64,000 nt of DNA from a virus (IMGVR_UViG_3300037461_000428:1-64000); one strand, 5' to 3'. Positions 3,309 through 31,878 are shown, numbered from the stretch's first letter. Numbers and translations are program-made. Notes: generated by a model from the sequence alone, not told the origin.

Positions 3309-3623
3309 ATGAATAAAAATCTACGTAAAGCCATATTAAAAAGTATTGAGCATTGGCATCAGAATCTTGATATGTTAATATTGAACAACCTTAGTAATCA
3401 CTATCTTATAGATGATATAAGTATACTTGGAGAAGATTGTGCTTTATGTATATATTTGCATAGTTTGTGTTGTGATTGTCCATTATATGATAATTATAAA
3501 TGGAATTGTTGTAAAGAATATCAATCTGTAATTAATTGGTATTATGGTAATCATCGTACATATACTATTGGTTATAAAGTTATAAGTGTGATGCTTGAGA
3601 AACTTTATAGTTTATTAGATTAA
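3309..3623 (+). CDS. hypothetical Cys-rich protein
   Basis: 104-aa ORF whose ATG abuts the upstream stop. Confidence 0.55.
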   Translation: MNKNLRKAILKSIEHWHQNLDMLILNNLSNHYLIDDISILGEDCALCIYLHSLCCDCPLYDNYKWNCCKEYQSVINWYYGNHRTYTIGYKVISVMLEKLYSLLD

Positions 3624-3788
3624 TATAACTTGGTAGTATGCTTAGAAGTAGCAAGCTTTAATGAGTAGAGTGATACTGCCACTACCCACGGGGGCTATTC
3701 TTAATAATAGAGAATGTGCTAGGGTGGGAGTGGATAAACAGATCAACCTTAATAGGGCTCTTTTGGTGTAATAACACGCCAAGTTATA
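3624..3788 (+). ncRNA. candidate structured RNA (unknown family)
   Basis: No ORF. Closing stem TATAACTTGG/CCAAGTTATA. Inner stems GGTAGTAT/ATACTGCC, GCTT/AAGC and CCACTACCCA/TGGGAGTGG. Confidence 0.3.
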
Positions 3789-3799
3789 TTTAATATCAT

Positions 3800-3847
3800 A
3801 CAACTATCAAAGGTTGCCATTAAAACGGCAACCTTTTGTTTAGTTGT
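3800..3847 (+). repeat. boundary hairpin of cassette array A (attC-like, also terminator-like)
   Basis: ACAACTA-TC-AAAGGTTGCC loop GGCAACCTTTT-GTT-TAGTTGT. Near-identical copies at 10429 and 23251. Confidence 0.8.
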
Positions 3848-3900
3848 AGTCAATGCTGCGCCTCTCTGAATTTATAGGCGCGGCCAAGAAAGGAATAACA

Positions 3901-4158
3901 ATGTCAACATGTCAATCGTGTGGTGGAATTATCGGTCGAGATTGTTTTAATCCTGAAGAGTGTGCTTGGATTACTCAGCAACAGGCCAACCAATGCGAGG
4001 CCGCGCAGTACAACGCGGAAGAGGCACAGCACAGCCTACAACAGCTAAAGGCTGAAATTGCCACTCTTGTCGATAAACTTGAGGCTATTTCGGCGGAGTA
4101 TTTATATCACCATAATTATGTAATTATTAATAAGCTGCGGCAACTATCAGCCGTTTAG
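3901..4158 (+). CDS. small cassette protein (Cys-rich N-terminus, coiled-coil-like)
   Basis: ATG after AAGAAAGGAATAACA. It ends ...LRQLSAV like the paralog at 12184-12528. The track ORF starts at 3853. Confidence 0.6.
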   Translation: MSTCQSCGGIIGRDCFNPEECAWITQQQANQCEAAQYNAEEAQHSLQQLKAEIATLVDKLEAISAEYLYHHNYVIINKLRQLSAV

Positions 4159-4168
4159 CAAACGTTGG
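4038..4168 (+). repeat. attC-like imperfect hairpin (E-element)
   Basis: 5' arm ACAAC-AGC-TAAAG-GCTG. 3' arm CAGCC-GTTTAGC-AAAC-GTTGG. Long loop that contains the ORF end. Confidence 0.6.
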
Positions 4169-4200
4169 TTGCAATGTTTGCACACAAGAAAGGTTAATAT

Positions 4201-4434
4201 ATGGCGGCATTTAACGAGTGGTGGGAAGAGGCGCGTGAAGCATTAGCAGGATTTACCGACAAGGGAGTCGCTCATTTTGCGTGGGATGCCGCCATTAAGA
4301 GCTTGGAAGGTGTGCAAACACAGACAACCAACTGCCAAAGTGCGCCATGTCCTGTCTGCTCAACAGCATTACGGCTTGATGCAAATTTTTGTATGCAATG
4401 CGGCAGACGAGTACAGGACGAGGCGCACGTTTAG
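4201..4434 (+). CDS. small cassette protein, zinc-ribbon-like
   Basis: 77-aa ORF with RBS AGAAAGG. CPVC...CMQC pairs. Confidence 0.65.
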   Translation: MAAFNEWWEEAREALAGFTDKGVAHFAWDAAIKSLEGVQTQTTNCQSAPCPVCSTALRLDANFCMQCGRRVQDEAHV

Positions 4435-4447
4435 CAAACGTTGGTGG
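4324..4447 (+). repeat. attC-like imperfect hairpin (E-element)
   Basis: ACAACCAAC-TGCC-AAAG-TGCGCC ... GGCGCAC-GTTTAGCAAAC-GTTGGTGG. Distal stem GTGCGCC/GGCGCAC. Confidence 0.75.
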
Positions 4448-4482
4448 CAATTACGCCGCCGACAATTTATAGGAGCGCGATA

Positions 4483-4722
4483 ATGAGCACAGACTGGAGT
4501 GCTGCTAAGTATCGAAGAGAAGCCAAGCGGGAACCTGCGCGTCTTAAATTTTGGTTGCAGTATCACGATGACATCGACAGGGCAAGTAGAGATGTTTGCG
4601 ATAACCCGCCTGGCTTTGACGAATACTGGAGGCAGATGTTTCCTAACGCAAAAAGATATCGCGCTCAGCAGATTATTGAGCGGCGGCGCAACAGCCACCA
4701 ACACGCAAAGGGAATGAAATAA
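4483..4722 (+). CDS. small basic cassette protein
   Basis: ATG after TATAGGAGCGCGATA. The track ORF starts further upstream at 4441. Confidence 0.6.
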   Translation: MSTDWSAAKYRREAKREPARLKFWLQYHDDIDRASRDVCDNPPGFDEYWRQMFPNAKRYRAQQIIERRRNSHQHAKGMK

Positions 4723-4854
4723 TGCTTTACACTATTGTAATTTTATCGGTCGTCTGTGCCGTTTTACTCGGCATAGTAATATGGGGCATTTTCTTTTTAT
4801 CGAAGTTTGGTAATTGGAGATAGCGCATTACTTCACCCTTTTGCGGAACGTTGT
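4698..4854 (+). repeat. attC-like imperfect hairpin (E-element) with a mini-ORF in the loop
   Basis: CCAAC-ACGC-AAAGGG ... CCCTTTT-GCG-GAAC-GTTGT. The middle box is CGC/GCG here but TGC/GCA in other copies, which is a compensatory change. Confidence 0.7.
4722..4823 (+). CDS. small hydrophobic peptide, 33 aa
   Basis: The ATG overlaps the upstream TAA. Translation MLYTIVILSVVCAVLLGIVIWGIFFLSKFGNWR. Lies inside the loop of hairpin 4698-4854. Confidence 0.45.
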   Translation: MLYTIVILSVVCAVLLGIVIWGIFFLSKFGNWR

Positions 4855-4886
4855 ACGCAATAATTTGCTTAAGAAAGGTTTGATAT

Positions 4887-5105
4887 ATGGCCGCAAAAAG
4901 AAGCATCACTTGTATTAAACGAGATGTATGTATCTACCACATTGGACATAAATTTCCTGCCTGTAGTGGTTGCGGCCATTACATTAAGGAAACGCAAATT
5001 ACAGCGCACAACTGCCAAAGTACGCCGTGTTGTTCAGAGTGTGGTAGCACTTGTGTTTTAGTAATGTGTAATACTTGTGGTCATCGACATTGTTATTTAA
5101 AATAG
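4887..5105 (+). CDS. small Cys-rich cassette protein
   Basis: 72-aa ORF with RBS AAGAAAGG. Multiple CxxC pairs. Confidence 0.65.
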   Translation: MAAKRSITCIKRDVCIYHIGHKFPACSGCGHYIKETQITAHNCQSTPCCSECGSTCVLVMCNTCGHRHCYLK

Positions 5106-5131
5106 CACGGCGCACGTTTAGCAACCGTTGT
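5004..5131 (+). repeat. attC-like imperfect hairpin (E-element)
   Basis: GCGCACAAC-TGCC-AAAG-TACGCCGTG ... CACGGCGCAC-GTTTAGCAAC-CGTTGT. Confidence 0.75.
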
Positions 5132-5308
5132 AAGAAATAAATTTTGCTCTTTTAAATTATAAAGGCGCGGCGAACATTGCACGATCTAATTAATCGTGCG
5201 GTCAAATGCTGGTTAATTGCACAGGATATTGCCAGAGGTGTGATCGTGAACTGTGTACGAAGATCACCCCGCGCCTAATTTATTGTAGCAAAATTTACAT
5301 CTTACAAC
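5127..5308 (+). repeat. non-coding cassette closed by a long terminal stem (R-type)
   Basis: GTTGTAAGAAATAAATTTTGCT pairs with AGCAAAATTTACATCTTACAAC (20 of 22 positions). Inner stem AAAGGCGCGG/CCGCGCCT. No ORF of 60 aa or more. Confidence 0.7.
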
Positions 5309-5362
5309 AGCTAAAGGAATGCAACGCCAAAATTGGCGTAGCATCCGTTTAGCAAACGTTGG
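5304..5362 (+). repeat. compact attC-like hairpin (E-element)
   Basis: ACAAC-AGC-TAAAG-GAATGC [ACGCC..GGCGT] GCATCC-GTTTAGCAAAC-GTTGG. No coding content. Confidence 0.75.
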
Positions 5363-5418
5363 TTGCAATAAACCACCATGAATATTATAGTTCGGCGCAC
5401 AATAAAGGAGGTTGCCGC

Positions 5419-5634
5419 ATGAAAATAAAACAGATTACCGATCAGCATCGCAGAGATTTTTCAGCTATTTATATTTGCGAACATTGTGGTGTCGAAGAAA
5501 AAGGTAGTGGATATGATGATGATAATTTTCACCGCAATGTTATTCCTAATAAAGTTTGCAAATCATGCGGCAAAAAAGCACCGGAAGATTATTGTCCTAT
5601 CGGCACAAAATATCCTGCATACGCAGTTGTATAA
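5419..5634 (+). CDS. small zinc-ribbon cassette protein
   Basis: ATG after AAAGGAGG. CEHC...CKSC pairs. The gene is bracketed by the inverted repeat TTCGGCGCACAA (5391) / TTGTATAATGCGCCGAA (5627). Confidence 0.65.
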   Translation: MKIKQITDQHRRDFSAIYICEHCGVEEKGSGYDDDNFHRNVIPNKVCKSCGKKAPEDYCPIGTKYPAYAVV

Positions 5635-5670
5635 TGCGCCGAATTAAAATTAAGGATTGGTGGTTTACAT

Positions 5671-5724
5671 CAACCAACACGCAAGTCACGCCATAGAAGC
5701 GGCGTGAACTTGCGGACACGTTGT
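5671..5724 (+). repeat. compact attC-like hairpin (E-element)
   Basis: CAACCAAC-ACGC-AAGTCACGCC loop GGCGTGAACTT-GCG-GACAC-GTTGT. Confidence 0.75.
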
Positions 5725-5772
5725 AGTCAATTCCGGTTTTGAAAACCTTTTATTATAGGAGCGCGCAAGAAA

Positions 5773-6045
5773 ATGAAATTATTAAACGATATCAACATTG
5801 TTGTGTCTAACAATTTTATTGAACTTATGGCATTAAAAGCTGAGTCGGATGGTATGCTTTCTGAAAATTATCAACGGATGGCATTATCACAAAGTATGGC
5901 GTATGCAGAAAAAGATTTTCTTTACGTAGCGGATAGAATGCGCGCTCTGAAATATGATGAAGCAAAACCGGAACAGCCTACAACAACGCAAGGCCAAAAC
6001 GCCCAAAGCGGCGCATCGGCCTTGCGTAAACGTTGTAAGAAATAA
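5773..6045 (+). CDS. small cassette protein
   Basis: 90-aa ORF, ATG after TATAGGAGCGCGCAAGAAA. Translation runs through the whole hairpin 5980-6036. Confidence 0.6.
   Translation: MKLLNDINIVVSNNFIELMALKAESDGMLSENYQRMALSQSMAYAEKDFLYVADRMRALKYDEAKPEQPTTTQGQNAQSGASALRKRCKK
5980..6036 (+). repeat. compact attC-like hairpin (E-element)
   Basis: ACAAC-AACGCAAGGCC loop GGCCTTGCGT-AAAC-GTTGT. Confidence 0.75.
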
Positions 6046-6171
6046 GACTTGCTTTTATGATTATAAGCGGCAAAGTTTCTTTGGGTGTAGATTTTAAAAA
6101 CCTCCGCACGGATGCTACTGAACGTGTGGTTTGCAACTTACATTATGGAGGCAAGTCTTACATCTTACAAC
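6032..6171 (+). repeat. non-coding cassette closed by a long terminal stem (R-type)
   Basis: GTTGTAAGAAATAAGACTTGC pairs with GCAAGTCTTACATCTTACAAC. The variable hexamer covaries relative to 5127 and 10472. Confidence 0.7.
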
Positions 6172-6265
6172 AAATAAAACCTGCAATGCCGCCTGTCCAC
6201 CTATTAGGACTGGATCGCTTTAAATGCGGCGTGCGGCGGCAAAGCAGGTGTTTATCGGACGTTGT
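6167..6265 (+). repeat. attC-like imperfect hairpin (E-element)
   Basis: ACAAC-AAATAAAA-CCTGCAATGCCGCC ... GGCGGCAAAGCAGG-TGTTTATCGGAC-GTTGT. Confidence 0.65.
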
Positions 6266-6307
6266 ACGCAATGCCACTTTAAATTAGATGCGGCGGGAGG
6301 TGTTAAA

Positions 6308-6580
6308 ATGGTTTTCTCATGTCCAAAGTGTCACGGTGCAATATATCCGTCAGATAATGTTGACTATTACGATTGCGAAGATTGTCATCACTTGTATCAT
6401 ATCGAATATTTAAAAGGTTTTGTTGCAGGTAAAATGTCCGCCGCAAAAGCGATGGAACAAAGTGGCACAGCGCACAACACGCAAAGTGACGGCATGTTTA
6501 ACTGTCCACCATTATGCCCTGTCTGTGGTCGATGTCATGTGCCATCAATAGAGTGTTTGCCATTACTGAGTATCAGTTAA
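6308..6580 (+). CDS. small Cys-rich cassette protein (two zinc-ribbon-like units)
   Basis: ATG after GGGAGGTGTTAAA. CPKC..CEDC and CPVCGRC motifs. The track ORF 6224 begins upstream, inside the preceding hairpin. Confidence 0.6.
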   Translation: MVFSCPKCHGAIYPSDNVDYYDCEDCHHLYHIEYLKGFVAGKMSAAKAMEQSGTAHNTQSDGMFNCPPLCPVCGRCHVPSIECLPLLSIS

Positions 6581-6608
6581 ACACGACCGCACGTTTGCGG
6601 AACGTTGT
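6470..6608 (+). repeat. attC-like imperfect hairpin (E-element)
   Basis: GCGCACAAC-ACGC-AAAG-TGACGG ... CCGCAC-GTTT-GCG-GAAC-GTTGT. Confidence 0.7.
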
Positions 6609-6634
6609 TTGCAATTGCAATTGAGGAAAAATAT

Positions 6635-6829
6635 ATGATAGTCGAGCTTGCACAAGAAGCGGCAGAGTTAATCAAAGTGTATCGTGATAAAAATATTGTA
6701 ATTGATAACTGGCAGTATAGGGTGCAAGCTCTATTAATTGCAGTAGCTCAATTGCAACAGACAAACAACTCGCAAAGGAATGCAATGGCGGTCGAGCCGA
6801 GTACGGTAAACGAGCAATCGTTTCATTGA
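6635..6829 (+). CDS. small cassette protein
   Basis: ATG after GAGGAAAAATAT. 64 aa. Confidence 0.55.
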   Translation: MIVELAQEAAELIKVYRDKNIVIDNWQYRVQALLIAVAQLQQTNNSQRNAMAVEPSTVNEQSFH

Positions 6830-6894
6830 GCAAGCTCAGTGGCACACGTAAGATCGTGTGGTGTCCGCCACTGCATCCATTTGCGGGACGTTGT
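6765..6894 (+). repeat. attC-like imperfect hairpin (E-element)
   Basis: ACAAC-TCGC-AAAG-GAATGCAATGGCGG ... CCGCCACTGCATCC-ATTT-GCG-GGAC-GTTGT. Confidence 0.75.
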
Positions 6895-6928
6895 ACGCAA
6901 TGCCACTTTAAATTGAAAGGAGTTTGCC

Positions 6929-7138
6929 ATGTTACAAGAGGTAATTGATTTTCTTGACCATCAATTTTCAATGAAAGACGCAACAATTTTATACCGTGAC
7001 CAATGGCAAACTCTGAAATCTGCGGTACTTGCGGCACAGCCAACCAACTGCCAAAGTGCGCCATGTTCTTTTTGCGGCAGAGCGGTTACGGTTCAATTTC
7101 CGATATGTTTTGAGTGCCGTGGTAAAATTCATGATTAA
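6929..7138 (+). CDS. small zinc-ribbon cassette protein
   Basis: 69-aa ORF, ATG after GAAAGGAGTTTGCC. CSFC...CFEC pairs. Confidence 0.65.
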   Translation: MLQEVIDFLDHQFSMKDATILYRDQWQTLKSAVLAAQPTNCQSAPCSFCGRAVTVQFPICFECRGKIHD

Positions 7139-7164
7139 CAAGGCGCACGTTTAGCGACCGTTGT
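7041..7164 (+). repeat. attC-like imperfect hairpin (E-element)
   Basis: CAACCAAC-TGCC-AAAG-TGCGCC ... GGCGCAC-GTTTAGCGAC-CGTTGT. Paralogous to 4324 and 5004. Confidence 0.75.
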
Positions 7165-7199
7165 ACGCAATTGTAAATTTTAAACAGGAGTATTATAAT

Positions 7200-7430
7200 A
7201 TGCTCGCTCAACCATGCCCTTTTTGTGGTAGCAGTATTAGAATCTTTGACAATGTAGGAGGCCAGTGCGTTACTCATAAACACGATACCTGCTGTTTGAG
7301 TCACATGGTATTTAGATTGCGGTCATGGAATGAGCGAGCAAACGCTGTGGAAGAAAATTTACAACAGCGCACAACACAGCAAGGCACACAAGCCGCAAAA
7401 GAAAAAGACGCGGCCAGCGGCCATTGCTGA
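7200..7430 (+). CDS. small cassette protein (CPFC motif)
   Basis: ATG after CAGGAGTATTATAAT. In this gene the conserved GCGCACAAC arm is read as R-T-T, not as A-H-N. Confidence 0.6.
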   Translation: MLAQPCPFCGSSIRIFDNVGGQCVTHKHDTCCLSHMVFRLRSWNERANAVEENLQQRTTQQGTQAAKEKDAASGHC

Positions 7431-7438
7431 AACGTTGT
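7367..7438 (+). repeat. attC-like imperfect hairpin (E-element)
   Basis: GCGCACAAC-A-CAGCAAGGC ... GGCCATTGCTG-AAAC-GTTGT. Confidence 0.65.
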
Positions 7439-7471
7439 ACGCAACCGGCAATGAAACTATAGGAGCGCAAT

Positions 7472-7597
7472 ATGTCGCAGATCGAAAAGAATACGCAGTC
7501 TATTGAGGCACTTGCAGAAGAAATACGGTTGTTACGTGAACAAGTTATTGCGCTCAAAGAGCAATTGGAATCATTGCCAGCAGCGCACAACAAATAA
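7472..7597 (+). CDS. small coiled-coil-like cassette protein, 41 aa
   Basis: ATG after TATAGGAGCGCAAT. Translation MSQIEKNTQSIEALAEEIRLLREQVIALKEQLESLPAAHNK. Below the track cutoff. Confidence 0.5.
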   Translation: MSQIEKNTQSIEALAEEIRLLREQVIALKEQLESLPAAHNK

Positions 7598-7725
7598 AGG
7601 TTAAAATTGTGGCCGATACCAAAAAACGCAGTTCAAGCTTCTCTGATCTCAAAAGAAGTATGGCGGTTTTACATAAAGTTTCCGCTGCAAAGCGGCCACA
7701 ACTTCAACCATTTATCGCACGTTGT
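7583..7725 (+). repeat. attC-like imperfect hairpin (E-element)
   Basis: GCGCACAAC-AAA-TAAAGGTTAAAATTGTGGCC ... GGCCACAACTTCAACCATTTA-TCGCAC-GTTGT. Confidence 0.7.
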
Positions 7726-7810
7726 ACGCAATGCTGCCCTTAAAACATTATTAGAGTTTGCGGCGGCCAAGAACGCGGCATCGTGCCGCGAAGAGAAAGG
7801 CAAAAACAAA

Positions 7811-8833
7811 ATGCAAATCACAAGAAACCTTATCGTACCAACTGGCAATATACTCGTGGTATCTGGAGCAAAAGGCAATTTGGAAATGCTTTCTCTTGCT
7901 GATTATGGACAGAGCGTAAATCTAAACCAACACAAAGCAGTAGAAAACGGATTGCCGCTTTTGCCACTAACTGAAAAGTGGGTGGTTACAGTTTCAACAC
8001 AATACGGTTGTTCAATGTGCTGTGAATTTTGCGATGTGCCGAAAGTTGGAGCGGGAAAAAACGCTACATTTCACGATCTTTGTGGTCAAATTCTTACGGC
8101 GTTGACATTACCAAATGTTCCACAGCAGACCAAAAGATTAAATATTCATTTTGCGCGAATGGGGGAACCATCTTGGAACCCTGCTGTTCTTGATTGCGGG
8201 AAATGGATAATGGAACATCTTGGCGATACCTACAATCCGCATCCTGTTGTTTCTACAATGATGCCGCGTAAAAACGAATGGTTGAAAACATTTATTCATA
8301 ATTGGATGAGAATGAAAAACAGGGTTTATCGTGGGAATGCAGGCTTGCAGCTTTCAATAAATTCAACAGATGAAGAAGAAAGAAAAAGAATGTTTTCTGG
8401 CAATGCTTGTACGCTTGAGGAAATATCAGAAATCATGCGTGGCATTATCCCTGTCGGAAGAAAAATAACTCTCAATTTTGCAGTAGCGGGATACACTGTA
8501 GATTGTGATAAACTTGCAAGGCTTTTTTCTCCTGAATTGTTTATTGTAAAGCTAACACCGATGCACAAAACTGACAAAGCAATCCAGAACGGAATAAAAA
8601 CGGAAGGTGATTATACAACACCAGAACCGTATTTAGAACTTGAAACAAGATTACAAAAAGCTGGATTTGATACTCTTGTTTTTATAGCAAGCGATGATGA
8701 AGATAAAGGAAGAATAACTTGCGGTAATGCAATTCTTTCTGGAACATTACCAGAATGCAAATATCAAGAGACGCATCCCTGCGCCGAGAGGCCGCCGCAA
8801 GACACTGTAGAAACGGGCAGCACATGCGTATAA
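7811..8833 (+). CDS. radical SAM enzyme, RlmN/Cfr-like
   Basis: VSTQYGCSMCCEFCDV contains CxxxCxxC. MGEPSWNP, LQLSINSTDEEERKRMF and the C-terminal GRITCGNAILSG parallel RlmN/Cfr blocks. The start was moved to ATG 7811 because the track start 7607 runs through a hairpin. Confidence 0.8.
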   Translation: MQITRNLIVPTGNILVVSGAKGNLEMLSLADYGQSVNLNQHKAVENGLPLLPLTEKWVVTVSTQYGCSMCCEFCDVPKVGAGKNATFHDLCGQILTALTLPNVPQQTKRLNIHFARMGEPSWNPAVLDCGKWIMEHLGDTYNPHPVVSTMMPRKNEWLKTFIHNWMRMKNRVYRGNAGLQLSINSTDEEERKRMFSGNACTLEEISEIMRGIIPVGRKITLNFAVAGYTVDCDKLARLFSPELFIVKLTPMHKTDKAIQNGIKTEGDYTTPEPYLELETRLQKAGFDTLVFIASDDEDKGRITCGNAILSGTLPECKYQETHPCAERPPQDTVETGSTCV

Positions 8834-8912
8834 CAGCCGCAGTATGCAAAGCGGATTACACTATGGAGTTTATTAATTAATAGCCGCTCAGCACACATGC
8901 GGCATACGTTGT
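8832..8912 (+). repeat. probable E-element (arms less regular)
   Basis: AAC-AGCCGCAGTATGC-AAAGCGG ... CCGCT..CATGCGGCATAC-GTTGT. The pairing register is ambiguous. Confidence 0.35.
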
Positions 8913-8943
8913 AAGAAATAAATTTTGCTCTTTGTAATTGTAG
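8908..8943 (+). repeat. orphan 5' arm of an R-type cassette
   Basis: GTTGTAAGAAATAAATTTTGCTCTTTGTAATTGTAG is near-identical to 5127-5162, but no matching ...TTACATCTTACAAC partner follows. Confidence 0.5.
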
Positions 8944-9029
8944 TTTGCATACAGCGGGTTCCGGTAGACCAACCTACGGCACTCCAAAAAAGTAACATTA
9001 GTAACGGTCGCTAAGCGGAAACAGCTACC

Positions 9030-9156
9030 GACAGCCAAAAGGATGAAATTTGCCCTAATTGTGGCTGTGTTGCTATCAGTATTGGTAATAACAATTTTCT
9101 GTGCGGTTGTGAGCCTGATCGTTAGGCAAATTATCAGCCATTTAGCGATACGTTGT
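9030..9156 (+). repeat. probable E-element with a mini-ORF in the loop
   Basis: GACAGCC-AAAAGG-ATGAAATTTGCC ... GGCAAATTATCAGCC-ATTTAGC-GATAC-GTTGT. The core on the 5' side is degenerate. Confidence 0.45.
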
Positions 9157-9195
9157 GCGCAATTAAAATTTTTCTGGAGTTATAATGGTAACTAA
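9043..9195 (+). CDS. small hydrophobic peptide, 50 aa
   Basis: ATG after CCAAAAGG. Translation MKFALIVAVLLSVLVITIFCAVVSLIVRQ... It overlaps the next gene's start. Confidence 0.4.
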   Translation: MKFALIVAVLLSVLVITIFCAVVSLIVRQIISHLAIRCAQLKFFWSYNGN

Positions 9196-9373
9196 AAAAG
9201 AAATCGGTGATATGGTTTTTCAGATTATTCGTGAAAAATGTGTCAGCGATATGGCGGCATTTCGTGCATCTGAGGACGTTGCTATTTACATTGTGGATAA
9301 AATTTTACCAGCTGCTCTTTCTGCCAATGAAGATATAATCTTTAATAATTGGAAAGATGCAGAAAACAATTAG
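9185..9373 (+). CDS. small protein at the right edge of array A (KDAENN family)
   Basis: 62-aa ORF, ATG after CTGGAGTTATA. Its 3' end and the downstream 20 nt are repeated at 24480-24575. Confidence 0.65.
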   Translation: MVTKKEIGDMVFQIIREKCVSDMAAFRASEDVAIYIVDKILPAALSANEDIIFNNWKDAENN

Positions 9374-9404
9374 ACAATAAACGAATCGCGGAAGAGGAAT
9401 TAAT

Positions 9405-10118
9405 ATGGTTAAAGTAAATACAGACTTTGAAAAACTACAATTAAAAGCAAGAGATGCTCTCTATTTTATAGATAGTCATCCAGCTATTAATGGTAGCTTT
9501 TTTGGTGTACAAACTAGTTTGTGGTTTAGTATCCAAACAGTTTGTAAAAGAGGCCATAGTGAATATTCTATCAAAGACATGACTATTTATTATAGTAAAG
9601 AAAACTATAAAAAATTTAAAAAAGAATTCGATAAAGAAATAGCAGAAGATCAGGATTATTTCAAAAAGTGTCCAACATTAGTAAGTATACAAATGCCTTA
9701 TCAAAAAGTATTTGGAGAACCTTGGATATTTGACCATATAGAATATTGGGGCGAACTTACATTGCATATTTATAAAGGTAAGAAAGCTAAAGAGAAGTTT
9801 AACTTTCTAGACTGGGATAATTGGGAAGGACCGCACGCAGGAGGAAGAACTTACGAAGAAATGATTATTAACCTCGCTAAGAAAATGAAAAAAGAATGTG
9901 GTAATTTTGATTATTATAGTTTTCTGACTCCAGAAGAAATTAAGAATCATAAAGAGGAAGAGGTATTCTTCTGGAAAAAAGTTCCAGATACAAAAGAACA
10001 TAAAAACTATTCTACTATTATACCTAACAAAAAGTATATTAAAGTAAGCGACGCCGAAAAGAATCTTCGATGGCAAGAGTGGATGAAGATTAAGAAGAAT
10101 ATTTCTTATAATAATTAA
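9405..10118 (+). CDS. hypothetical protein
   Basis: 237-aa AT-rich ORF with GGAAGAGGAATTAAT before the ATG. No motif recognised. Confidence 0.7.
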   Translation: MVKVNTDFEKLQLKARDALYFIDSHPAINGSFFGVQTSLWFSIQTVCKRGHSEYSIKDMTIYYSKENYKKFKKEFDKEIAEDQDYFKKCPTLVSIQMPYQKVFGEPWIFDHIEYWGELTLHIYKGKKAKEKFNFLDWDNWEGPHAGGRTYEEMIINLAKKMKKECGNFDYYSFLTPEEIKNHKEEEVFFWKKVPDTKEHKNYSTIIPNKKYIKVSDAEKNLRWQEWMKIKKNISYNN

Positions 10119-10141
10119 CAGGAGAAATAAATGAAAGAATA

Positions 10142-10402
10142 TTGGATATGTATAGTTGTCCAGTAGAAGGAAGTAAATTACCAGAAGGTTCTGATAGTGC
10201 ACCTAGAAACGGCGCACAAACAGGAATGTACAGATTAGGATTAGACGATAAATATGATATATCGTCTGGGTGGGGACTTACCAAAGACCAAGTAAATAGA
10301 ATTTTAAATATTTGGAGAGAGCCCAGTTGTCAAGGTATATTTAAAAATAGACAAGGCGCAATTAAAAGACCAAAACCTAAAGTTGTAAAGAAAAAGAAAT
10401 AA
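10142..10402 (+). CDS. hypothetical protein
   Basis: 86-aa ORF with a basic C-terminus. The RBS is not convincing. Confidence 0.5.
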   Translation: MDMYSCPVEGSKLPEGSDSAPRNGAQTGMYRLGLDDKYDISSGWGLTKDQVNRILNIWREPSCQGIFKNRQGAIKRPKPKVVKKKK

Positions 10403-10428
10403 TGTTATTATTTAACAATTAACTGCAT

Positions 10429-10476
10429 ACAACTATCAAAGATTGCCATTAAAACGGCAACCTTTTGTTTAGTTGT
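10429..10476 (+). repeat. boundary hairpin of cassette array B
   Basis: ACAACTATCAAAGATTGCC attaaaac GGCAACCTTTTGTTTAGTTGT. A copy of 3800-3847. Confidence 0.8.
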
Positions 10477-10644
10477 AAGAAATAAACTTGGCTTTTGTCT
10501 TATAGAAAATGGTGCGAAAAATGCGCTTAATTAGTTGCTTAAAACAGCCCTCGGATTATTCGCTATTATCATGGAACCCGACCAAGCTGCCGGTTCGAGC
10601 GAGCCATTTTTTACATTATGGAAGCCAAGTTTACATCTTACAAC
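10472..10644 (+). repeat. non-coding cassette closed by a long terminal stem (R-type)
   Basis: GTTGTAAGAAATAAACTTGGC pairs with GCCAAGTTTACATCTTACAAC. The interior is unrelated to the other R copies. Confidence 0.7.
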
Positions 10645-10767
10645 AAATGCGTTATGCAATATCCCGCTCCGGCATGGTTGCCATAGCACTACTAGAAATG
10701 GTTCGCAAGGTGTAAACATGGATTCGAGTCCCATGGGCGGGATATAGCATAACACATCAACCGTTGT
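10640..10767 (+). repeat. attC-like hairpin whose loop holds a tRNA-like element
   Basis: ACAAC-AAA-TGC-GTTATGC ... GCATAAC-ACATCAAC-CGTTGT. Confidence 0.65.
10663..10742 (+). ncRNA. tRNA-like element (acceptor plus T-arm, no canonical anticodon arm)
   Basis: Acceptor CCCGCTC/GGGCGGG. T-arm ATGGA-TTCGAGT-CCCAT. GGCA-tggt-TGCC hairpin. The central arm has a 13-nt loop. Confidence 0.4.
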
Positions 10768-10795
10768 ACAAAATTAAAATTTTTCTGGAGGTTAT

Positions 10796-11029
10796 ATGGC
10801 AAAAACTTATCTGTGCCCATATTCTAAAACGGAGAGCATACGATGTAATTTACAAACACCATGTATAGAGTGTAAGGTATTTTTGCCGGACACTATGGAT
10901 AAAATTTTAACTTCGTACAACAAACAAAGTATGCCATTTTGTGCTTTACCGGATCATTGCGATATGCAAAGCGCAGTTTATTTATGTAATTGCGAATCGA
11001 TTTGTAAGCATAAACGGCATACTTTGTAA
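10796..11029 (+). CDS. small Cys-rich cassette protein
   Basis: 77-aa ORF, ATG after CTGGAGGTTAT. Confidence 0.6.
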   Translation: MAKTYLCPYSKTESIRCNLQTPCIECKVFLPDTMDKILTSYNKQSMPFCALPDHCDMQSAVYLCNCESICKHKRHTL

Positions 11030-11037
11030 AACGTTAG
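10914..11037 (+). repeat. attC-like imperfect hairpin (E-element)
   Basis: TCGTACAAC-AAA-CAAAGTATGCC ... GGCATACTTTG-TAAAAC-GTTAG. The distal stem is 11 perfect bp. Confidence 0.7.
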
Positions 11038-11078
11038 ATGCAATGTTCGCCTTAAAACAGTATAGGAGTTTTTCGCGC

Positions 11079-11327
11079 ATGAAACTATCTCGTTGTATTT
11101 GCGGTCGTGAAGCAAAAATATGGGCTGGGCAGTATGGGGATGAATTGCGTACAATTGAGTGTAATTGCGGCATCTCAACGTTGGCATGGTGGAACGGGAA
11201 TAAATGTGCCGCAAATTGGAATACAATTCAGCGCGAAAAAAGAAAAGTTGAAGCGGCGAACACAGCATCTAACAACAGCGTTACGCAAGCCGCAGAAACA
11301 AAAAGCACGGCCAGCGCAACACTGTAA
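11079..11327 (+). CDS. small cassette protein (CICG...CNCG)
   Basis: ATG after TATAGGAGTTTTTCGCGC. The track ORF 10941 begins inside the previous cassette. Confidence 0.6.
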   Translation: MKLSRCICGREAKIWAGQYGDELRTIECNCGISTLAWWNGNKCAANWNTIQREKRKVEAANTASNNSVTQAAETKSTASATL

Positions 11328-11334
11328 ACGTTGT
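11272..11334 (+). repeat. compact attC-like hairpin (E-element)
   Basis: ACAAC-AGCGTTACGC ... GCGCAACACTG-TAAAC-GTTGT (9 of 11 positions pair). Confidence 0.55.
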
Positions 11335-11374
11335 GCGCAATGGGCGCGGAGAGCGTTTTTATAGGAGCTGCCAA

Positions 11375-11560
11375 ATGAAAGTATCTGCTATTGAGCAAGT
11401 AGTGAAATATTATCAGTCAATCGTTGACTCGTTGCCTATTGGTGGTTTTGGCGTGAAGGTGTTACACGATGCTTTGGTGGAATTGGCCGCTCTGAAGGCA
11501 GCGGAGTCCGCGCCCACAGACGCACAACAAACCAATGGCGGCGCAAAGCCTAAATGCTGA
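11375..11560 (+). CDS. small cassette protein
   Basis: ATG after TATAGGAGCTGCCAA. 61 aa. Confidence 0.55.
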   Translation: MKVSAIEQVVKYYQSIVDSLPIGGFGVKVLHDALVELAALKAAESAPTDAQQTNGGAKPKC

Positions 11561-11591
11561 GTATAGCACTTCGCCATTGGTCTGACGTTGT
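11520..11591 (+). repeat. compact attC-like hairpin (E-element)
   Basis: ACGCACAAC-AAA-CCAATGGCG ... CGCCATTGG-TCTGAC-GTTGT. The distal stem is 9 perfect bp. Confidence 0.75.
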
Positions 11592-11623
11592 ACGCAATAT
11601 TTTGCTTAAGAAAGGTTTGATAT

Positions 11624-11851
11624 ATGGCTGCTAATACAGGAATACGATTGTTGCCAAAAAATCTTTCTGATTCTGATCGTGCTTTATGGCTTGCAGGTTA
11701 CGAAGCGGCCATTAACGCTATGGAAGCGCAAAATACAGTGCACAACATCAGCGTTATGCCATGTGTCGGTTGTCTGAACAAAATCACAACTTGTCGGCTT
11801 GGTTATCAGATCGAAGATCAGCCTTGTAACCAGCGCACGGCACAACACTGA
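11624..11851 (+). CDS. small cassette protein
   Basis: 75-aa ORF. Its 5' UTR (TTGCTTAAGAAAGGTTTGATAT) is the same as that of the gene at 4887. Confidence 0.6.
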   Translation: MAANTGIRLLPKNLSDSDRALWLAGYEAAINAMEAQNTVHNISVMPCVGCLNKITTCRLGYQIEDQPCNQRTAQH

Positions 11852-11860
11852 AAACGTTGT
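11738..11860 (+). repeat. attC-like imperfect hairpin (E-element)
   Basis: GTGCACAAC-ATCAG-CGTTATGCC ... GGCACAACA-CTG-AAAAC-GTTGT. Confidence 0.6.
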
Positions 11861-11887
11861 ATACAATATTTAACAATCGAGGTTAAT

Positions 11888-12136
11888 ATGTCAAATTTGA
11901 AACGATATACAGAGAGTTATTGTTGTGGTAAGTATGATGGCATGGAAGAGGATTCTCTCGCTGGCGAATGGGTCAAATTTGACGACATTAAGGAGTTGTT
12001 AAATACCGTGCACAACCGCCAAAGGGATGAAATATTGCATCTTATTATGGATGATTCGTTTGCTATTTCATTTCAGTCGTTTAGTCAGTATCGGTCGGCA
12101 TTGGTTAAAGAGATCGCAAAACTATCAGCCATTTAG
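11888..12136 (+). CDS. small cassette protein
   Basis: 82-aa ORF, ATG after CGAGGTTAAT. It ends ...KLSAI, encoded by the shared AACTATCAGCCATTTAG module. Confidence 0.6.
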   Translation: MSNLKRYTESYCCGKYDGMEEDSLAGEWVKFDDIKELLNTVHNRQRDEILHLIMDDSFAISFQSFSQYRSALVKEIAKLSAI

Positions 12137-12146
12137 CAAACGTTGT
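12008..12146 (+). repeat. E-element arms present but distal stems do not match
   Basis: 5' arm GTGCACAAC-CGCC-AAAG-GGATG. 3' arm CAGCC-ATTTAGCAAAC-GTTGT. This looks like a recombinant or decayed site. Confidence 0.35.
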
Positions 12147-12183
12147 AGTCCATAATTGTGCAACCATATCATAGGAGGTGCGT

Positions 12184-12528
12184 ATGTATATAGGCGGTAA
12201 TGAAATTTCTAAACAGGTGGATTTCTTCGAGCTAGAAGCTAAGAACCGTGTTACAGCTGGTGATTTTGATACGGCGCAATGGTGCATTCAAGCTGCAAAT
12301 GCCGCGTTTCAGGCGTATGTATGTATTTGTAAACGTGAACGCGCCGAAGAAAAACAGCCTACAACAGCTCAAGCATGTCAGCCGGAGGAAGCGGGCCACA
12401 CAAACAGCCAACAACTAAAATCCGAAATTGCCGCTCTTGTAGCGGAATGTAGTGCTAATGCCATCAATAGTGGTAATAATAAGTATCAGTGGTTAATTGA
12501 TAGACTGCGGCAACTATCAGCCGTTTAG
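12184..12528 (+). CDS. small cassette protein, paralog of 3901-4158
   Basis: ATG after ATAGGAGGTGCGT. It shares QQLK.EIA.LV and the terminal LRQLSAV with 3901-4158. Confidence 0.6.
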   Translation: MYIGGNEISKQVDFFELEAKNRVTAGDFDTAQWCIQAANAAFQAYVCICKRERAEEKQPTTAQACQPEEAGHTNSQQLKSEIAALVAECSANAINSGNNKYQWLIDRLRQLSAV

Positions 12529-12539
12529 CGGTACGTTAT
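12408..12539 (+). repeat. probable E-element
   Basis: CCAACAAC-TAAAA-TCCG ... CAGCC-GTTTAGC-GGTAC-GTTAT. A homolog of 4038-4168. Confidence 0.45.
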
Positions 12540-12566
12540 GCAAAAGTTTTAACGCTGGAGATTTAT

Positions 12567-12821
12567 ATGTCAACGCTCGATGATCTTTGGAACGACACTA
12601 TGTACGCATACCAAAATGGTGAGCTGTCGCGGGAACAGGTCGCGTTGAAATTTGCGGAGGCGTTAAAACCTTCGCACAACAAACCTATGCCAAAATTGCC
12701 GACACTGGCGGAATGTCAAACAGAGATACAGTCGCAGATATGGGGTGGCGGCTTTAAGGGAACATCTTCAAATATAACTGAGATTGTTTACAATTTTATA
12801 TGTCGGCAACTGTCGGCATAG
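12567..12821 (+). CDS. small cassette protein
   Basis: 84-aa ORF, ATG after CTGGAGATTTAT. Confidence 0.6.
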   Translation: MSTLDDLWNDTMYAYQNGELSREQVALKFAEALKPSHNKPMPKLPTLAECQTEIQSQIWGGGFKGTSSNITEIVYNFICRQLSA

Positions 12822-12833
12822 GTCGGACATTGT
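12672..12833 (+). repeat. attC-like imperfect hairpin (last element of array B)
   Basis: TCGCACAAC-AAA-CCTATGCC-AAAA-TTGCCGACA ... TGTCGGCAA-C-TGTC-GGCATAGG-TCGGAC-ATTGT. Confidence 0.7.
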
Positions 12834-12876
12834 AAGCAATTTGTCTAAACTTTTAATGCTATACTATAACAATACT

Positions 12877-12923
12877 GGGGAATAACTCAATTGGTTAGAG
12901 TTCAAGTCTCTCTTCCCTTACCA
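12877..12923 (+). ncRNA. 47-nt tRNA-like minihelix ending in ACCA
   Basis: GGGAA/TTCCC acceptor-like stem, AATTGGTT D-loop-like segment, AGAG-TTCAAGT-CTCT T-arm, then TTACCA. Confidence 0.35.
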
Positions 12924-13361
12924 TTTTATAAGAAGGATCTTATTTCACATTATAATACATTAAAAACTGAGCTTCGTAACAAGAAGAATTTAATTAAGGC
13001 TCTTGTTCGAAGAGGATGGAAAGAAGAGAACATAGAAGTACATGATGAGGCCCAAAATTTAGTTGATTATCAAGGCGATAAAAGAAATCAGAAAGCTGAG
13101 ATAATTATACGCAGAAAATACGTAGGTGGTGCTTCTAATGATATGGGATTTAAGCTCCAATCAGATGGAACTTATCAGGCTATTATATCAGACTTTGACC
13201 GTAATAAATACGGTGATCAGTTCATGAAGAATCTTGAACTAGACTATGGTGTGGAACAGACTAAGGATGCATTCACAATGAACGGCTGGCAGTTTCAGGA
13301 ATCCACTGACGAAAAAGGAAATGTAGTATTGCTTGGTCAGGTTTACGAAGGAAGTTACTAA
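12891..13361 (+). CDS. DUF1257 (Ycf35-like) protein; start uncertain
   Basis: Paralog of 47479-47907. Shared segments are SHxxxxxTELxxKKxLxxAL and Y.A..D..... The best alignment begins at ATT 12942, 4 nt after AAGAAGGA. The track uses TTG 12891, which lies inside the minihelix. Confidence 0.6.
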   Translation: MVRVQVSLPLPFYKKDLISHYNTLKTELRNKKNLIKALVRRGWKEENIEVHDEAQNLVDYQGDKRNQKAEIIIRRKYVGGASNDMGFKLQSDGTYQAIISDFDRNKYGDQFMKNLELDYGVEQTKDAFTMNGWQFQESTDEKGNVVLLGQVYEGSY

Positions 13362-16747: not shown

Positions 16748-17527
16748 ATGAGAAATATAAAAATATCAGGACTATCAGTTGATCAAACTTACGAGATAAT
16801 TCCAGATAGAACTTTGCTTTTGGGGTACGTCGGAAGTATTTCTCATGGAACTCAGATAAAAAAAGATAATCCAGACTGCATTGATGATATCGATATACTT
16901 GGGATTGCGCTTGGACCAGAAAATGTCTATTATGGCTTAGGTAAGTTTGAACAAAAAGAAGTTAAGAAAGACGAATGGGACAGTGTAGTATATGAGATAA
17001 AAAAAGCCTTTAGACTCTTATTAGGACAAAATCCTAATGTAATGGCTTTACTCTGGTTGCAGGAAAAGGACTATATACATATCTCTCCTACAGGGAGAAT
17101 GATCTTGGATAATCGTAACTTGTTCGTTAGTAAGCAGGCCTATCATTCATTCACTGGATACGCTCACGGCCAAGTTCATAGAGCTTTACATTTCGGAGAT
17201 ATGAAACAAGCCTATATGGGGGCTAAGAGATATGAGCTTGTACAAAAATATGGTTATGACACAAAAAACATGAGCCACTGTATCCGTCTTATGAGGATGT
17301 GCATCGAATACCTAGGTGATGGGGTACTAAGAGTCTTCAGAGAAGATGCTTGCGAACTTAAGGATATTAAATCTGGTAAGTGGAGTCTTGAAAAAGTTCA
17401 AAAGGAAACAGATAGATTATTCGTATTAGCACAAGAGGCGTTTGTAAGATCTACGCTTCCTAATCAACCAGACAAACAAAAAGCAGAAGAGTTGTTAATC
17501 TCGATTCTCAAAAAGGAGTTATCATGA
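16748..17527 (+). CDS. Pol-beta-superfamily nucleotidyltransferase (RlaP-like)
   Basis: GYVGSISHGTQ........DDIDILGI fits the GS..hG...D.D..G pattern of the nucleotidyltransferase family found next to RNA-repair ligases. Confidence 0.55.
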   Translation: MRNIKISGLSVDQTYEIIPDRTLLLGYVGSISHGTQIKKDNPDCIDDIDILGIALGPENVYYGLGKFEQKEVKKDEWDSVVYEIKKAFRLLLGQNPNVMALLWLQEKDYIHISPTGRMILDNRNLFVSKQAYHSFTGYAHGQVHRALHFGDMKQAYMGAKRYELVQKYGYDTKNMSHCIRLMRMCIEYLGDGVLRVFREDACELKDIKSGKWSLEKVQKETDRLFVLAQEAFVRSTLPNQPDKQKAEELLISILKKELS

Positions 17528-23231: not shown

Positions 23232-23250
23232 TATATAATTTTATTAACGT

Positions 23251-23357
23251 ACAACTATCAAAGGTTGCTATGCCGATAACATCCTGTGCGCGGGGTTGTT
23301 GATGACTGGCGCACCACCGACGCGACAACGCGGCACGGTAACCTTTTATTTAGTTGG
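23251..23357 (+). repeat. boundary hairpin of cassette array C with an insertion in its loop
   Basis: ACAACTATCAAAGGTTGC [about 60-nt GC-rich insert] GTAACCTTTTATTTAGTTGG. The arms match 3800 and 10429. Confidence 0.7.
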
Positions 23358-23389
23358 TTGCAATGCCGCAAGAATGAAAGGAATTTGCC

Positions 23390-23683
23390 ATGAAAAAAGT
23401 TATTAGCTCAGAGGAGCTAATAGCCGCCAACCCTTACTTTAAAGGTGGAGCGAAACACGTTCCACCAACTCACAAAGGGATGCAATGCGGGGGGTATGCG
23501 TTAGCGAGCGGTATGTGGCGTAACGTAACTATATCGCTTAGCGAAGCGAGCATTCATCGTCAAGATGAGCCTCCCACACAGCACCCATTTACGGACACGT
23601 TGTACGCAAGCTGGCCCTTAAAACAGCAGTATAGGAGCGCATTATGGGATTTGCATATAGATGTGATAAGTGTCACCAGTTAA
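23390..23683 (+). CDS. cassette protein
   Basis: 97-aa ORF, ATG after GAAAGGAATTTGCC. It reads through hairpin 23462-23603 and overlaps the next start. Confidence 0.5.
   Translation: MKKVISSEELIAANPYFKGGAKHVPPTHKGMQCGGYALASGMWRNVTISLSEASIHRQDEPPTQHPFTDTLYASWPLKQQYRSALWDLHIDVISVTS
23462..23603 (+). repeat. attC-like imperfect hairpin (E-element)
   Basis: CCACCAAC-TCAC-AAAGGG ... CCC-ATTT-ACG-GACAC-GTTGT. Confidence 0.55.
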
Positions 23684-23850
23684 CAGAGAGCCAAATTGTG
23701 CTTTGTCCATCGTGCGCTCCGAACATTAAGGAAGCGAGCCAACCAGTGCACAATTGCCAAAATGATGCAATTACTCGTGTTGAAAATAAATGTAATGAAA
23801 TATTGGAACGATTACCGCATCGGAATAGTGGTGAACTAGGCCCAGGTTAA
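23644..23850 (+). CDS. small zinc-ribbon cassette protein
   Basis: 68-aa ORF, ATG after TATAGGAGCGCATT. CDKC...CPSC pairs. Confidence 0.6.
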   Translation: MGFAYRCDKCHQLTESQIVLCPSCAPNIKEASQPVHNCQNDAITRVENKCNEILERLPHRNSGELGPG

Positions 23851-23867
23851 GCAATAGCACACGTTTA
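23746..23867 (+). repeat. E-element with a truncated 3' arm
   Basis: 5' arm GTGCACAAT-TGCC-AAAA. The 3' arm AGCACACGTTTA stops abruptly at an AT-rich palindrome. Confidence 0.4.
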
Positions 23868-23940
23868 TTAATAGTATTTATACTAGTTAATTAATAGCAC
23901 CTTATCCCAACTGGCCGAGGAAAAGGTGCTTAAAAACCTT

Positions 23941-24030
23941 CGCACAACAAACAAAGTACTCCATTATGTCCCACATAACGGGTTAGCAAAAATAGTAAGC
24001 GTACCGTATCCAGCGTGCGGTAAACGTTAT
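23941..24030 (+). repeat. probable E-element
   Basis: CGCACAAC-AAAC-AAAG-TACTCC ... GCGTGCGG-TAAAC-GTTAT. The distal stems do not match well. Confidence 0.4.
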
Positions 24031-24230
24031 ACAAAAATGCTGTGCTTTTAGAATTATGGGCACGGCTGGAGGTAACATGGAGTTTATCATTCTTCGAGGT
24101 AGATTTTCGGGACGCTTTTTTGGTGTCCAGTTGGTTTGTGGTAAGTATACGCTTCAGTATGCTTTTCGCAAATTTGGAGTATACAACTCTTGTACTCACA
24201 CATGGTGGCCGTGCTAAATTTTAGTTACAG
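24026..24230 (+). repeat. R-type non-coding cassette, divergent copy
   Basis: GTTATACAAAAATGCTGTGCTTTTAGAATTATGGGCACGGC ... GGCCGTGCTAAATTTTAGTTACAG. The GCTTTTAnnATTAT block is shared with the other R copies. Confidence 0.5.
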
Positions 24231-24396
24231 TACCATATTATTGGAGTCAATGATATGGTATATCGAACTGTCAAAAAAAATAGGACAGTTCACAATTACT
24301 AATTTTAGTAGATATTAGTAGATATTAGTAATATCACAAATTTTATAGACGCGCATTGTACTAAATTTACGGGATATTTAAAAATAGGAGAATACT

Positions 24397-24558
24397 ATGT
24401 CATCCTTTACATTTGAAGAATGGTGGGAAATAGGCAAGAAACTTGGCGGCAAAAAAATTACTGCACAGGCCGCATGGGAGGCCGCTCTTTCTGCCAATGA
24501 GGATAAAATTTTTGAAGAAGGATATAATTTGGGTTTTAAAGATGCAGAAAACAATTAG
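24397..24558 (+). CDS. small protein at the right edge of array C (KDAENN family)
   Basis: ATG after AATAGGAGAATACT. 53 aa. The segment ...ALSANEDKIF...KDAENN and the downstream sequence match 9185-9373. Confidence 0.6.
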   Translation: MSSFTFEEWWEIGKKLGGKKITAQAAWEAALSANEDKIFEEGYNLGFKDAENN

Positions 24559-24635
24559 ACAATAAACAAATCACAAAATACAAAAGAATAATTATCATAG
24601 AGGAATACACTCAAATATTCATATTCCAAATTAAT

Positions 24636-31521: not shown

Positions 31522-31878
31522 ATGAAAATTTTAATATTAGAAGACAGCGGCGAAAGAATTTTTGAATTCAAGAAAAGATTAGGTGCTCACGATGTAACTT
31601 TTACAATGGATACTAAAGAATGTATACATTTATTAGCTACTCAAGATTGGGACTATATTTGTCTCGATCATGATATGGGGACTACTTTTGATAAACCAGG
31701 AGAAGGTACTGGATATGAAGTAGCCAAATGGATATCTGAAAATCCTGAACGTAAACCAAGACATATATTATTACACACAATGAATAATGTCGGGGCGTCA
31801 GCTATGATGTTAGTTCTAGGTAGAGTAGGAATAAGAGCAAGTTATATACCTTGTCTATGGACGAAGATAGAAGTTTAA
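31522..31878 (+). CDS. stand-alone receiver (CheY-fold)-like protein
   Basis: MKILILEDSGERI... and ...YICLDHDMG fit a REC-fold acidic pocket. It resembles the receiver-like domains reported next to RNA-repair genes, which is an inference only. Confidence 0.5.
   Translation: MKILILEDSGERIFEFKKRLGAHDVTFTMDTKECIHLLATQDWDYICLDHDMGTTFDKPGEGTGYEVAKWISENPERKPRHILLHTMNNVGASAMMLVLGRVGIRASYIPCLWTKIEV

Follow-up and report, generated by a model that had tools for sequence, protein, structure and literature searches.

Covarying, strand-biased hairpins separate short gene modules in a large phage genome

In integrons, complementarity between the R'' box and the start of the cassette is the classical sign of crossover in R', with the circular cassette rebuilding a perfect site. 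The pdif modules (XerC/D) of Acinetobacter plasmids are bounded by 28-bp double-stranded Xer sites, which need no hairpin and contain no variable complementary part; in the IS200/IS605 and REP/RAYT systems, HUH enzymes act strand-specifically on imperfect single-stranded DNA hairpins, cleaving short motifs beside the foot. That integron junctions have the form G|TTRRRY, and that bottom strands are the more active ones, has been restated in work on phages, where integrase-less integron arrays (CALINs) with methyltransferase cargo were recombined by IntI1 (Qi et al. 2023, PMC9892861). Large lytic phages also have plastic regions in which stem-loop junctions, called PeSLs, lie between small accessory open reading frames (ORFs) (Arbiol 2010, PMC2839356; Comeau 2014, PMC4122927). 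Here we describe a phage island, array A, in which short gene modules alternate with imperfect hairpins; it lies near the start of IMGVR_UViG_3300037461_000428:1-64000, a stretch of viral DNA of 64,000 nt that we call the window throughout.

With pdif modules the locus shares only the alternation of modules flanked by an inverted short site, both intervals being movable, but pdif modules belong to plasmids and the present family to phages, and inspection of the boxes by eye shows nothing dif-like. The hairpins of IS200/IS605 and REP/RAYT are conserved in sequence and subterminal to one element, whereas here the distal stems differ from copy to copy and a whole gene tail can occupy the loop; moreover, no Y1 transposase is seen here, no window ORF giving a match to Y1_Tnp (HUH). 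We argue below that the junctions of array A are probably structured recombination sites which fold in the single-stranded DNA of the - strand and divide the island into exchangeable modules. On this reading the family consists of strand-specific structured recombination sites that work on the integron principle, as a variant distinct from canonical attC.

Hairpin anatomy, pairing rule and folding strand

Array A comprises 16 co-directional imperfect hairpins between window positions 3796 and 9163, all of them on the + strand, which separate 15 short modules; the distance from CAAC to GTTG in these hairpins is 38-147 nt. The GC content of the array is 0.427, against 0.31-0.36 in the flanks. 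Between the hairpins, and extending into them, are ORFs of 33-101 aa and one 340-aa radical-SAM-type gene. An earlier reading of the window, made from the sequence only, had described at least 16 co-directional mini-cassettes in a GC-richer island, with short ORFs and a radical SAM gene running deep into the hairpins, and the observation is confirmed here. The 3' box, CGTTGTACGCAAT, has 38 matches with up to three mismatches where 11.3 are expected, and the 5' box, GCGCACAACNNCNAAAG, has 22 where 2.3 are expected; scanned over both strands, a position weight matrix of the 3' box picks up 26 sites, all of them on the + strand. As copies of the 5' box are read in differing frames (AHN, RTT), it is conserved as DNA and not as peptide, by which a peptide-repeat reading was ruled out. 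Two further arrays of the same family, B (10425-12840) and C (23247-24560), are present in the window, and all three open at a closely similar backbone hairpin that looks like an intrinsic terminator; breaks in Logan assemblies coincide with these boundary hairpins.

The invariant core, CAAC/GTTG, is used by two kinds of stem. One is the top hairpin, made up of an L box of 6-7 bp, one bulged base, a variable distal stem and a loop able to carry coding sequence; the other is the R stem of 9 bp, in which the first bases of a gene body, GTTG and 5 further nt, pair with the last bases of that body, 5 nt and CAAC. Covariation was measured on the 25 sites from arrays A and B, aligned without gaps as the - strand after a linker had been substituted for every loop. 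The proposed pairs score 0.398 compared to 0.192 in shuffles, none of 500 shuffles reaching the observed value, and the score falls to 0.07-0.15 when the partner columns are slid; a covariation signal above shuffles had been proposed as a check of the earlier reading, and it is there. Each of the six L-box pairs shows 3-10 double changes, in line with the earlier claim of an inner box that covaries between copies. The distal stems are copy-specific, as had also been claimed, and remain complementary: in 13 of the 25 copies, none of the 25 candidate partners forms a better duplex than the copy's own. Sites are 52-162 nt long, with an asymmetric unpaired spacer (4 nt on one side, 0-1 nt on the other). 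The extra bases had been placed on the 3' side only; a majority does lie in the 3' arm as read on the + strand (24 vs 5 in the window; 21 vs 3 was also scored for the L'/R' arm), though not exclusively.

The partner of the 5' box beyond the core is not the one that had been assumed. A basal box pairing within its own hairpin holds for CAAC/GTTG, but the variable 5 nt before CAAC find their complement in the preceding hairpin's 3' box, i.e. at the start of their own cassette, at 87 of 115 positions, compared to 52 of 115 for the 3' box of their own hairpin, a value equal to random pairings. None of 200,000 permutations reached 87 (p<5e-6), and other offsets give 42-55%. Among 20 informative cassettes, the upstream box is favoured in 17 and the own box in none; hairpin 12 is the single clear exception to the rule. 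Examples of cassette start and matching cassette end are GTTGGTGGC ... GCCACCAAC, GTTGTTTGC ... CAAACAAC, GTTAGATGC ... GCATCTAAC and GTTGTAAGA ... TCTTACAAC. With an automated arm finder that ignores the R boxes, and that agrees with manual picks in 23 of 24 cases, the pairing rule was replicated in six other phage contigs (145/200 vs 93/200, p<=1e-5).

Stem positions that are not Watson-Crick pairs reveal which strand folds. Read on the + strand, C.A outnumbers G.T by 38 to 7 in the window (p = 3e-6) and by 32 to 4 in the arrays of four other contigs (p = 2e-6), and mismatches in the 9-bp R stems are G.T on the - strand in 26 cases vs 5. As C.A on the + strand is G.T on the - strand, this indicates indirectly that selection for pairing acts on the strand opposite the ORFs, and it argues for single-stranded DNA and against a structure in mRNA; a role as RNase III site or as terminator in mRNA was ruled out by the same bias. 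The distal stems are also more stable on the - strand (-16.9 vs -13.5 kcal/mol). Folding of an antisense RNA instead of single-stranded DNA may be an alternative.

GC skew is positive in almost all 1-kb bins of the whole window, so that the + strand looks like the leading strand and the hairpin-forming - strand would be the leading-strand template. In chromosomal integrons, the leading-strand-template orientation is reported to limit attC folding.

Module boundaries between genomes and spread of the family

When the arrays of different genomes are compared, blocks of homology begin at GTTG and end at CAAC. The body of ORF 5773-6045 and a contig from ENA (L126) share 93% identity between limits that fall exactly at GTTGTAGTC and CCTACAACA; in that contig the hairpin upstream is unrelated to the surroundings of body 5720-5985 and the following cassette is a different one, while the top after CAAC has diverged to ~60% identity, with compensating changes. 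The body of ORF 4201-4434 likewise matches an IMG/VR contig (L021), the final 60 nt being almost identical; the match stops exactly at ACAACCAAC, and the sequences beyond are unrelated. The earlier reading had named variation exactly at the junctions in related phage genomes as a check; in these two contigs of other phages, the ends of the shared blocks do fall at the cores. Conversely, one top (CAAC-AGCTAAAGGCTGAAATTGCC...CAGCCGTTTAGC) is found on three unrelated bodies, namely cassette 1 of array A, 12405-12535 of array B, and a further IMG/VR contig (L065), and ORFs 4201-4434, 4887-5105 and 6929-7138 have a zinc-ribbon top in common. Bodies are thus kept with different tops and tops are found on unrelated bodies; therefore both cores are breakpoints, and the two parts reassort independently. 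The 5' core is located within ORFs, so that exchange would swap the C-termini of proteins too.

The family occurs in unrelated phages: besides the contigs L126, L021 and L065 it is found in L035, L172 and L173, the last a 253-kb IMG/VR contig with 19 cassettes. Two of these phages, L021 and L065, are smaller and encode a terminase, a primase-helicase and a Gp157-family protein. In all, some 90 sites are known at present. Contigs with homologues of backbone proteins (37-58% identity) either have no array (L151, L153) or a single element (L152). For the cassette protein searched, homologues come from metagenomes only. Searching 185,579 bacterial species genomes (GTDB) with a two-site pattern gave 14 matches and no convincing array; this pattern performed better than a 14-mer scan of IMG/VR, which returned mostly chance matches. 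A metagenome scan with the boundary hairpin was discarded, as its 23 matches were all chance, with no array and no similarity to the window. Searching IMG/VR with flanking proteins found no relatives; there is no cultured phage close to this genome, and the island had no megablast match among 50,697 phage records.

Numerous homologues of the radical-SAM-type gene (70-83% identity) are present in other large phages, where they are found in ordinary gene rows without hairpins; ORF 5419-5634 belongs to phrog_14808 (Streptococcus, Yersinia and Acinetobacter phages), and ORF 7200-7430 resembles Lar restriction-alleviation proteins. In the L172 and L173 arrays, DNA methyltransferases and an acetyltransferase are carried. 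In these arrays, ordinary accessory genes of phages are thus found as cassettes, which would bear on the unsolved origin of integron cassettes.

Proposed mechanism and competing explanations

Our reading of the junctions as probable recombination sites starts from what can be observed directly, namely covarying hairpins with strand-biased mismatches, the pairing rule and the module boundaries between genomes. We propose that the sites would fold in vivo as single-stranded DNA, and that strand exchange at the cores would swap bodies (GTTG...CAAC) and tops (CAAC...GTTG) among arrays and among co-infecting phages. A body and its top, if excised and circularised, would restore one continuous hairpin, like the circle of an integron cassette; such putative circular intermediates would carry phage accessory and anti-defence genes as cargo. 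The structure-specific enzyme that this would call for could be a tyrosine recombinase, an HUH enzyme or another nuclease, presumably encoded outside the window or by the host.

Several observations weigh against this proposal. No recombinase was found among the ~55 window ORFs or in the flanks of the other arrays with Pfam and PHROGs, in keeping with the earlier statement that none is visible in the window. No circles or empty sites have been observed, nor did searches by flanking proteins, IMG/VR, metagenomes and backbone homologues find a close relative in which gain or loss could be seen at one locus. The independent assortment of tops and bodies is not predicted by integron recombination at R' alone. 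The T4-type genes of the phage (UvsX-like, Mre11/Rad50-like, SSB) could act at hairpin-induced breaks without a dedicated recombinase. Finally, the strand bias could in part be due to mutational asymmetry and not to selection; the 8-fold ratio is large, however.

An explanation from the known biology of such phages would be that these are PeSL-type regulatory cassettes, each made up of a terminator stem-loop, a promoter and a ribosome-binding site and shuffled by homologous recombination, as proposed for T4-like phages. The setting agrees with this: the arrays lie between conserved genes of a large lytic phage that has T4-like recombination genes, the junctions separate small accessory ORFs in a plastic region and coincide with insertions, deletions and replacements, as PeSLs do, and a mini-circle model has been proposed for PeSLs as well (PMC4122927). 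A Shine-Dalgarno sequence and start codon follow each hairpin within 30-60 nt, the motif TATAGG(A/C)GCG recurs in about half, and the boundary hairpins are terminator-like. The signals themselves, however, are at chance level. Sigma-70-like promoters number 26 where 26.3 are expected, with no fixed -10 element at 17 nt from TTGTAC, and terminator-like sites number 9 where 9.0 are expected, only the boundary hairpins qualifying; a T run is lacking from the internal hairpins, whose 5' arms are within ORFs. The mismatches favour folding of the non-mRNA strand by ~8:1, the opposite of what is expected for an mRNA terminator, and homologous recombination leaves the complementarity of the body ends unexplained. 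The presence of one family in unrelated phage types is a further difference from PeSLs, and altogether we regard this explanation as unlikely. Even less can be said for selfish palindromic repeats (REP/BIME- or MITE-like) that were inserted between pre-existing small genes and have no gene-moving role. The junctions are indeed hairpin-shaped, repeated, co-oriented and intergenic or 3', with conserved termini around a variable middle. Nearly all copies, however, differ in the sequence and length of their tops, some of which are coding; the matched inverted ends belong to the gene bodies and not to the hairpins; foreign GC content extends across the entire island; and identical bodies have different neighbours in other phages. 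We thus consider this origin highly improbable.

Another explanation would be a canonical CALIN, i.e. true attC sites assembled by a host IntI, as in a few virulent phages. The likeness to attC is extensive. The sites are imperfect hairpins with AAC/GTT cores, R and L boxes and a variable terminal structure, within a size range (see above) near that of attC (~57-141 nt); structure is conserved more than sequence, the ORFs are on the strand opposite the folding one, and the 5' core box is complementary to the opening of its own cassette. The cassettes are short and co-directional, with ORFs entering the site, the array starts at a terminator-like hairpin, and the methyltransferase cassettes of L172 and L173 have a parallel in the methyltransferase-bearing phage CALINs already known (PMC9892861). 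The differences concern the defining parts of the site. Only AAC and GTT(G) are invariant, and 1 of 25 sites matches the full R' consensus (GTTRRRY), as does 1 of 25 the full R'' consensus (RYYYAAC); the core here is GTTG(T/G)NN, and the R stem has 9 bp. The spacer is asymmetric, with 0-1 nt on one side compared to 4 nt, and the extra bases are on the R'/L' arm here and on the L'' arm in attC. In integrons, gene and attC travel together, while here the hairpin top and the gene reassort independently, with exchange at both cores. Many cassettes have a promoter-like motif, neither IntI nor attI was found within the window, none of the GTDB matches is a convincing array, and the family is so far confined to phage contigs, the cassette protein searched having metagenomic homologues only. 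The sequence-only reading had seen attC architecture here, with a core departing from GTTRRRY; the departure is borne out, and so are the AAC/GTT core, the covarying inner box, the extra bases on one arm and the variable terminal part, whereas the consensus, the arm that carries the extra bases, the linkage of gene and top and the lack of integrase and attI in the window all speak against attC itself. Two integron signatures were not part of that reading, namely the complementarity of the 5' box to its own cassette start and folding on the non-ORF strand. A canonical CALIN is in our view improbable, even more so than PeSL-type cassettes.

If the junctions are recombination sites of their own kind, one can go further, and here we are more tentative: the arrays are possibly a phage-specific counterpart of the integron, in which a pool of bodies and tops common to unrelated phages, from jumbo to siphovirus-like, is exchanged at the CAAC/GTTG cores of single-stranded DNA hairpins by a non-IntI enzyme or by the phage recombination machinery, swapping C-terminal domains such as zinc ribbons. 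The turnover of accessory and anti-defence genes in phages is very rapid, and its mechanism is largely unknown beyond homologous recombination and homing endonucleases. Were the proposal true, it would offer a concrete, testable mechanism which delimits gene-sized and domain-sized modules common to unrelated phages, and the integron principle of structure-specific single-stranded DNA sites would extend beyond IntI/attC. The sites are easy to scan for, and could be used for mining phage genomes for mobile anti-defence cargo.

Feature coordinates, non-coding cassettes and genome context

Table 1. Hairpins, bodies and arrays in the window (positions counted from its first nucleotide).
Feature	Position	Strand	Remarks
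Boundary hairpin of array A	3796..3854	+	CATACAAC-TATCAAAGGTTGCC...GGCAACCTTTTGTTTA-GTTGTAGTCAAT; also looks like an intrinsic terminator of the backbone
Boundary hairpin relatives (repeat family D6)	10419-10477; 23241		near-identical copy at 10419-10477; related one at 23241
Body 1	3843..4042	+	start GTTGTAGTC, end GCCTACAAC; N-terminal part of ORF 3853/3901-4158
Hairpin 2	4034..4175	+	top codes for C-terminal tail of ORF 3853-4158
Hairpin 3	4324..4451	+	zinc ribbon coded in top (ORF 4201-4434)
Hairpin 4	4694..4861	+	147-nt top: end of ORF 4483-4722 and 33-aa hydrophobic mini-ORF 4722-4823
Hairpin 5	5004..5138	+	zinc-ribbon top (ORF 4887-5105)
Non-coding body	5127..5308	+	start GTTGTAAGA, end TCTTACAAC, 9/9 complementary; content folds as structured RNA
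Hairpin 6	5300..5369	+	compact
Hairpin 7	5670..5731	+	downstream of ORF 5419-5634 (phrog_14808 match)
Body 7	5720..5985	+	ORF 5773-6045; 93% identity to L126, GTTGTAGTC to CCTACAACA
Hairpin 8	5976..6043	+	
Hairpin 9	6163..6272	+	downstream of non-coding body 6032-6171
Hairpin 10	6470..6615	+	ORF 6308-6580 extends into hairpin
Hairpin 11	6761..6901	+	5' box CAAACAAC matches cassette start GTTGTTTGC
Hairpin 12	7040..7171	+	zinc-ribbon top 90% identical to hairpin 3 top (repeat family D8)
Hairpin 13	7367..7445	+	downstream of Lar-like ORF 7200-7430
Hairpin 14	7583..7732	+	downstream of ORF 7472-7597
Radical-SAM-type gene, cassette-borne	7811..8833	+	340 aa, CxxxCxxC motif; start GTTGTACGC, 5' box GCGTATAAC
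Hairpin 15	8826..8919	+	
Hairpin 16	9024..9163	+	degenerate, CGAC replacing CAAC; then terminal ORF 9185-9373
Array B	10425..12840	+	9 hairpins, same family
Array C	23247..24560	+	boundary hairpin and at least 3 sites, same family

Four cassettes have no convincing ORF (5127-5308, 6032-6171, 8908-9030 and 10472-10644). They start GTTGTAAGAAATAA(A/G)...TTGCT, three of the four end ACATCTTACAAC, and similar starts are also seen in L152 and L173. Their contents fold as structured RNAs (z = -5.1 for 6044-6165 and z = -2.8 for 5145-5290) and gave no Rfam match; in the window as a whole Rfam matched tRNAs only, with nothing at E<=1 in 3600-13000. The top of an array B hairpin (10655-10750) has a cloverleaf-like, tRNA-like fold with a GGATTCGAGTCC T-arm motif (z = -2.9), and is called by neither ARAGORN nor Rfam.

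The promoter-like motif, (T)TATAGG(A/C)GCG, lies 10-25 nt upstream of the start codon in about half of the cassettes, in arrays A-C as well as in L021, L035, L065, L126, L172 and L173; it could be a promoter or initiation signal used by a non-sigma-70 polymerase, or an extended ribosome-binding site. Directly upstream of array A is a non-coding stretch of ~165 nt (3625-3790), closed by CTTGGT...GCCAAG and followed by the boundary hairpin; it may be a small RNA, and has no match in Rfam. The last ORFs of arrays A and C have common 3' ends and downstream sequence (9266-9405 vs 24472-24590, 83-88% over ~100 nt), which suggests exchange between arrays or duplicated array exits.

The window is a portion of a large phage genome, the source contig measuring 213,094 bp according to the database entries for two window proteins. 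Every window gene is on the + strand, the backbone has a GC content of 30-36%, and several tRNAs are present, together with proteins that include a UvsX/RecA-like recombinase, a UvrD helicase, a ClpB-like ATPase, a Ro/TROVE protein, RNA and DNA ligases and SSB. An RNA-repair gene set is found beside the tRNA genes, consisting of the Ro/TROVE protein (34338-35888), the RNA ligase (31851-33119), an RlaP-like nucleotidyltransferase (16748-17527) and a cyclic-phosphate receiver domain (31522-31878); the tRNA-His called by ARAGORN at 31885-31960 sits within the RNA ligase ORF and may be spurious. A 939-aa AAA ATPase at 44647-47466 is split by an intein with Hint and LAGLIDADG domains, and adjoins an Mre11-like phosphoesterase (43713-44618), the pair resembling T4 gp46/gp47.

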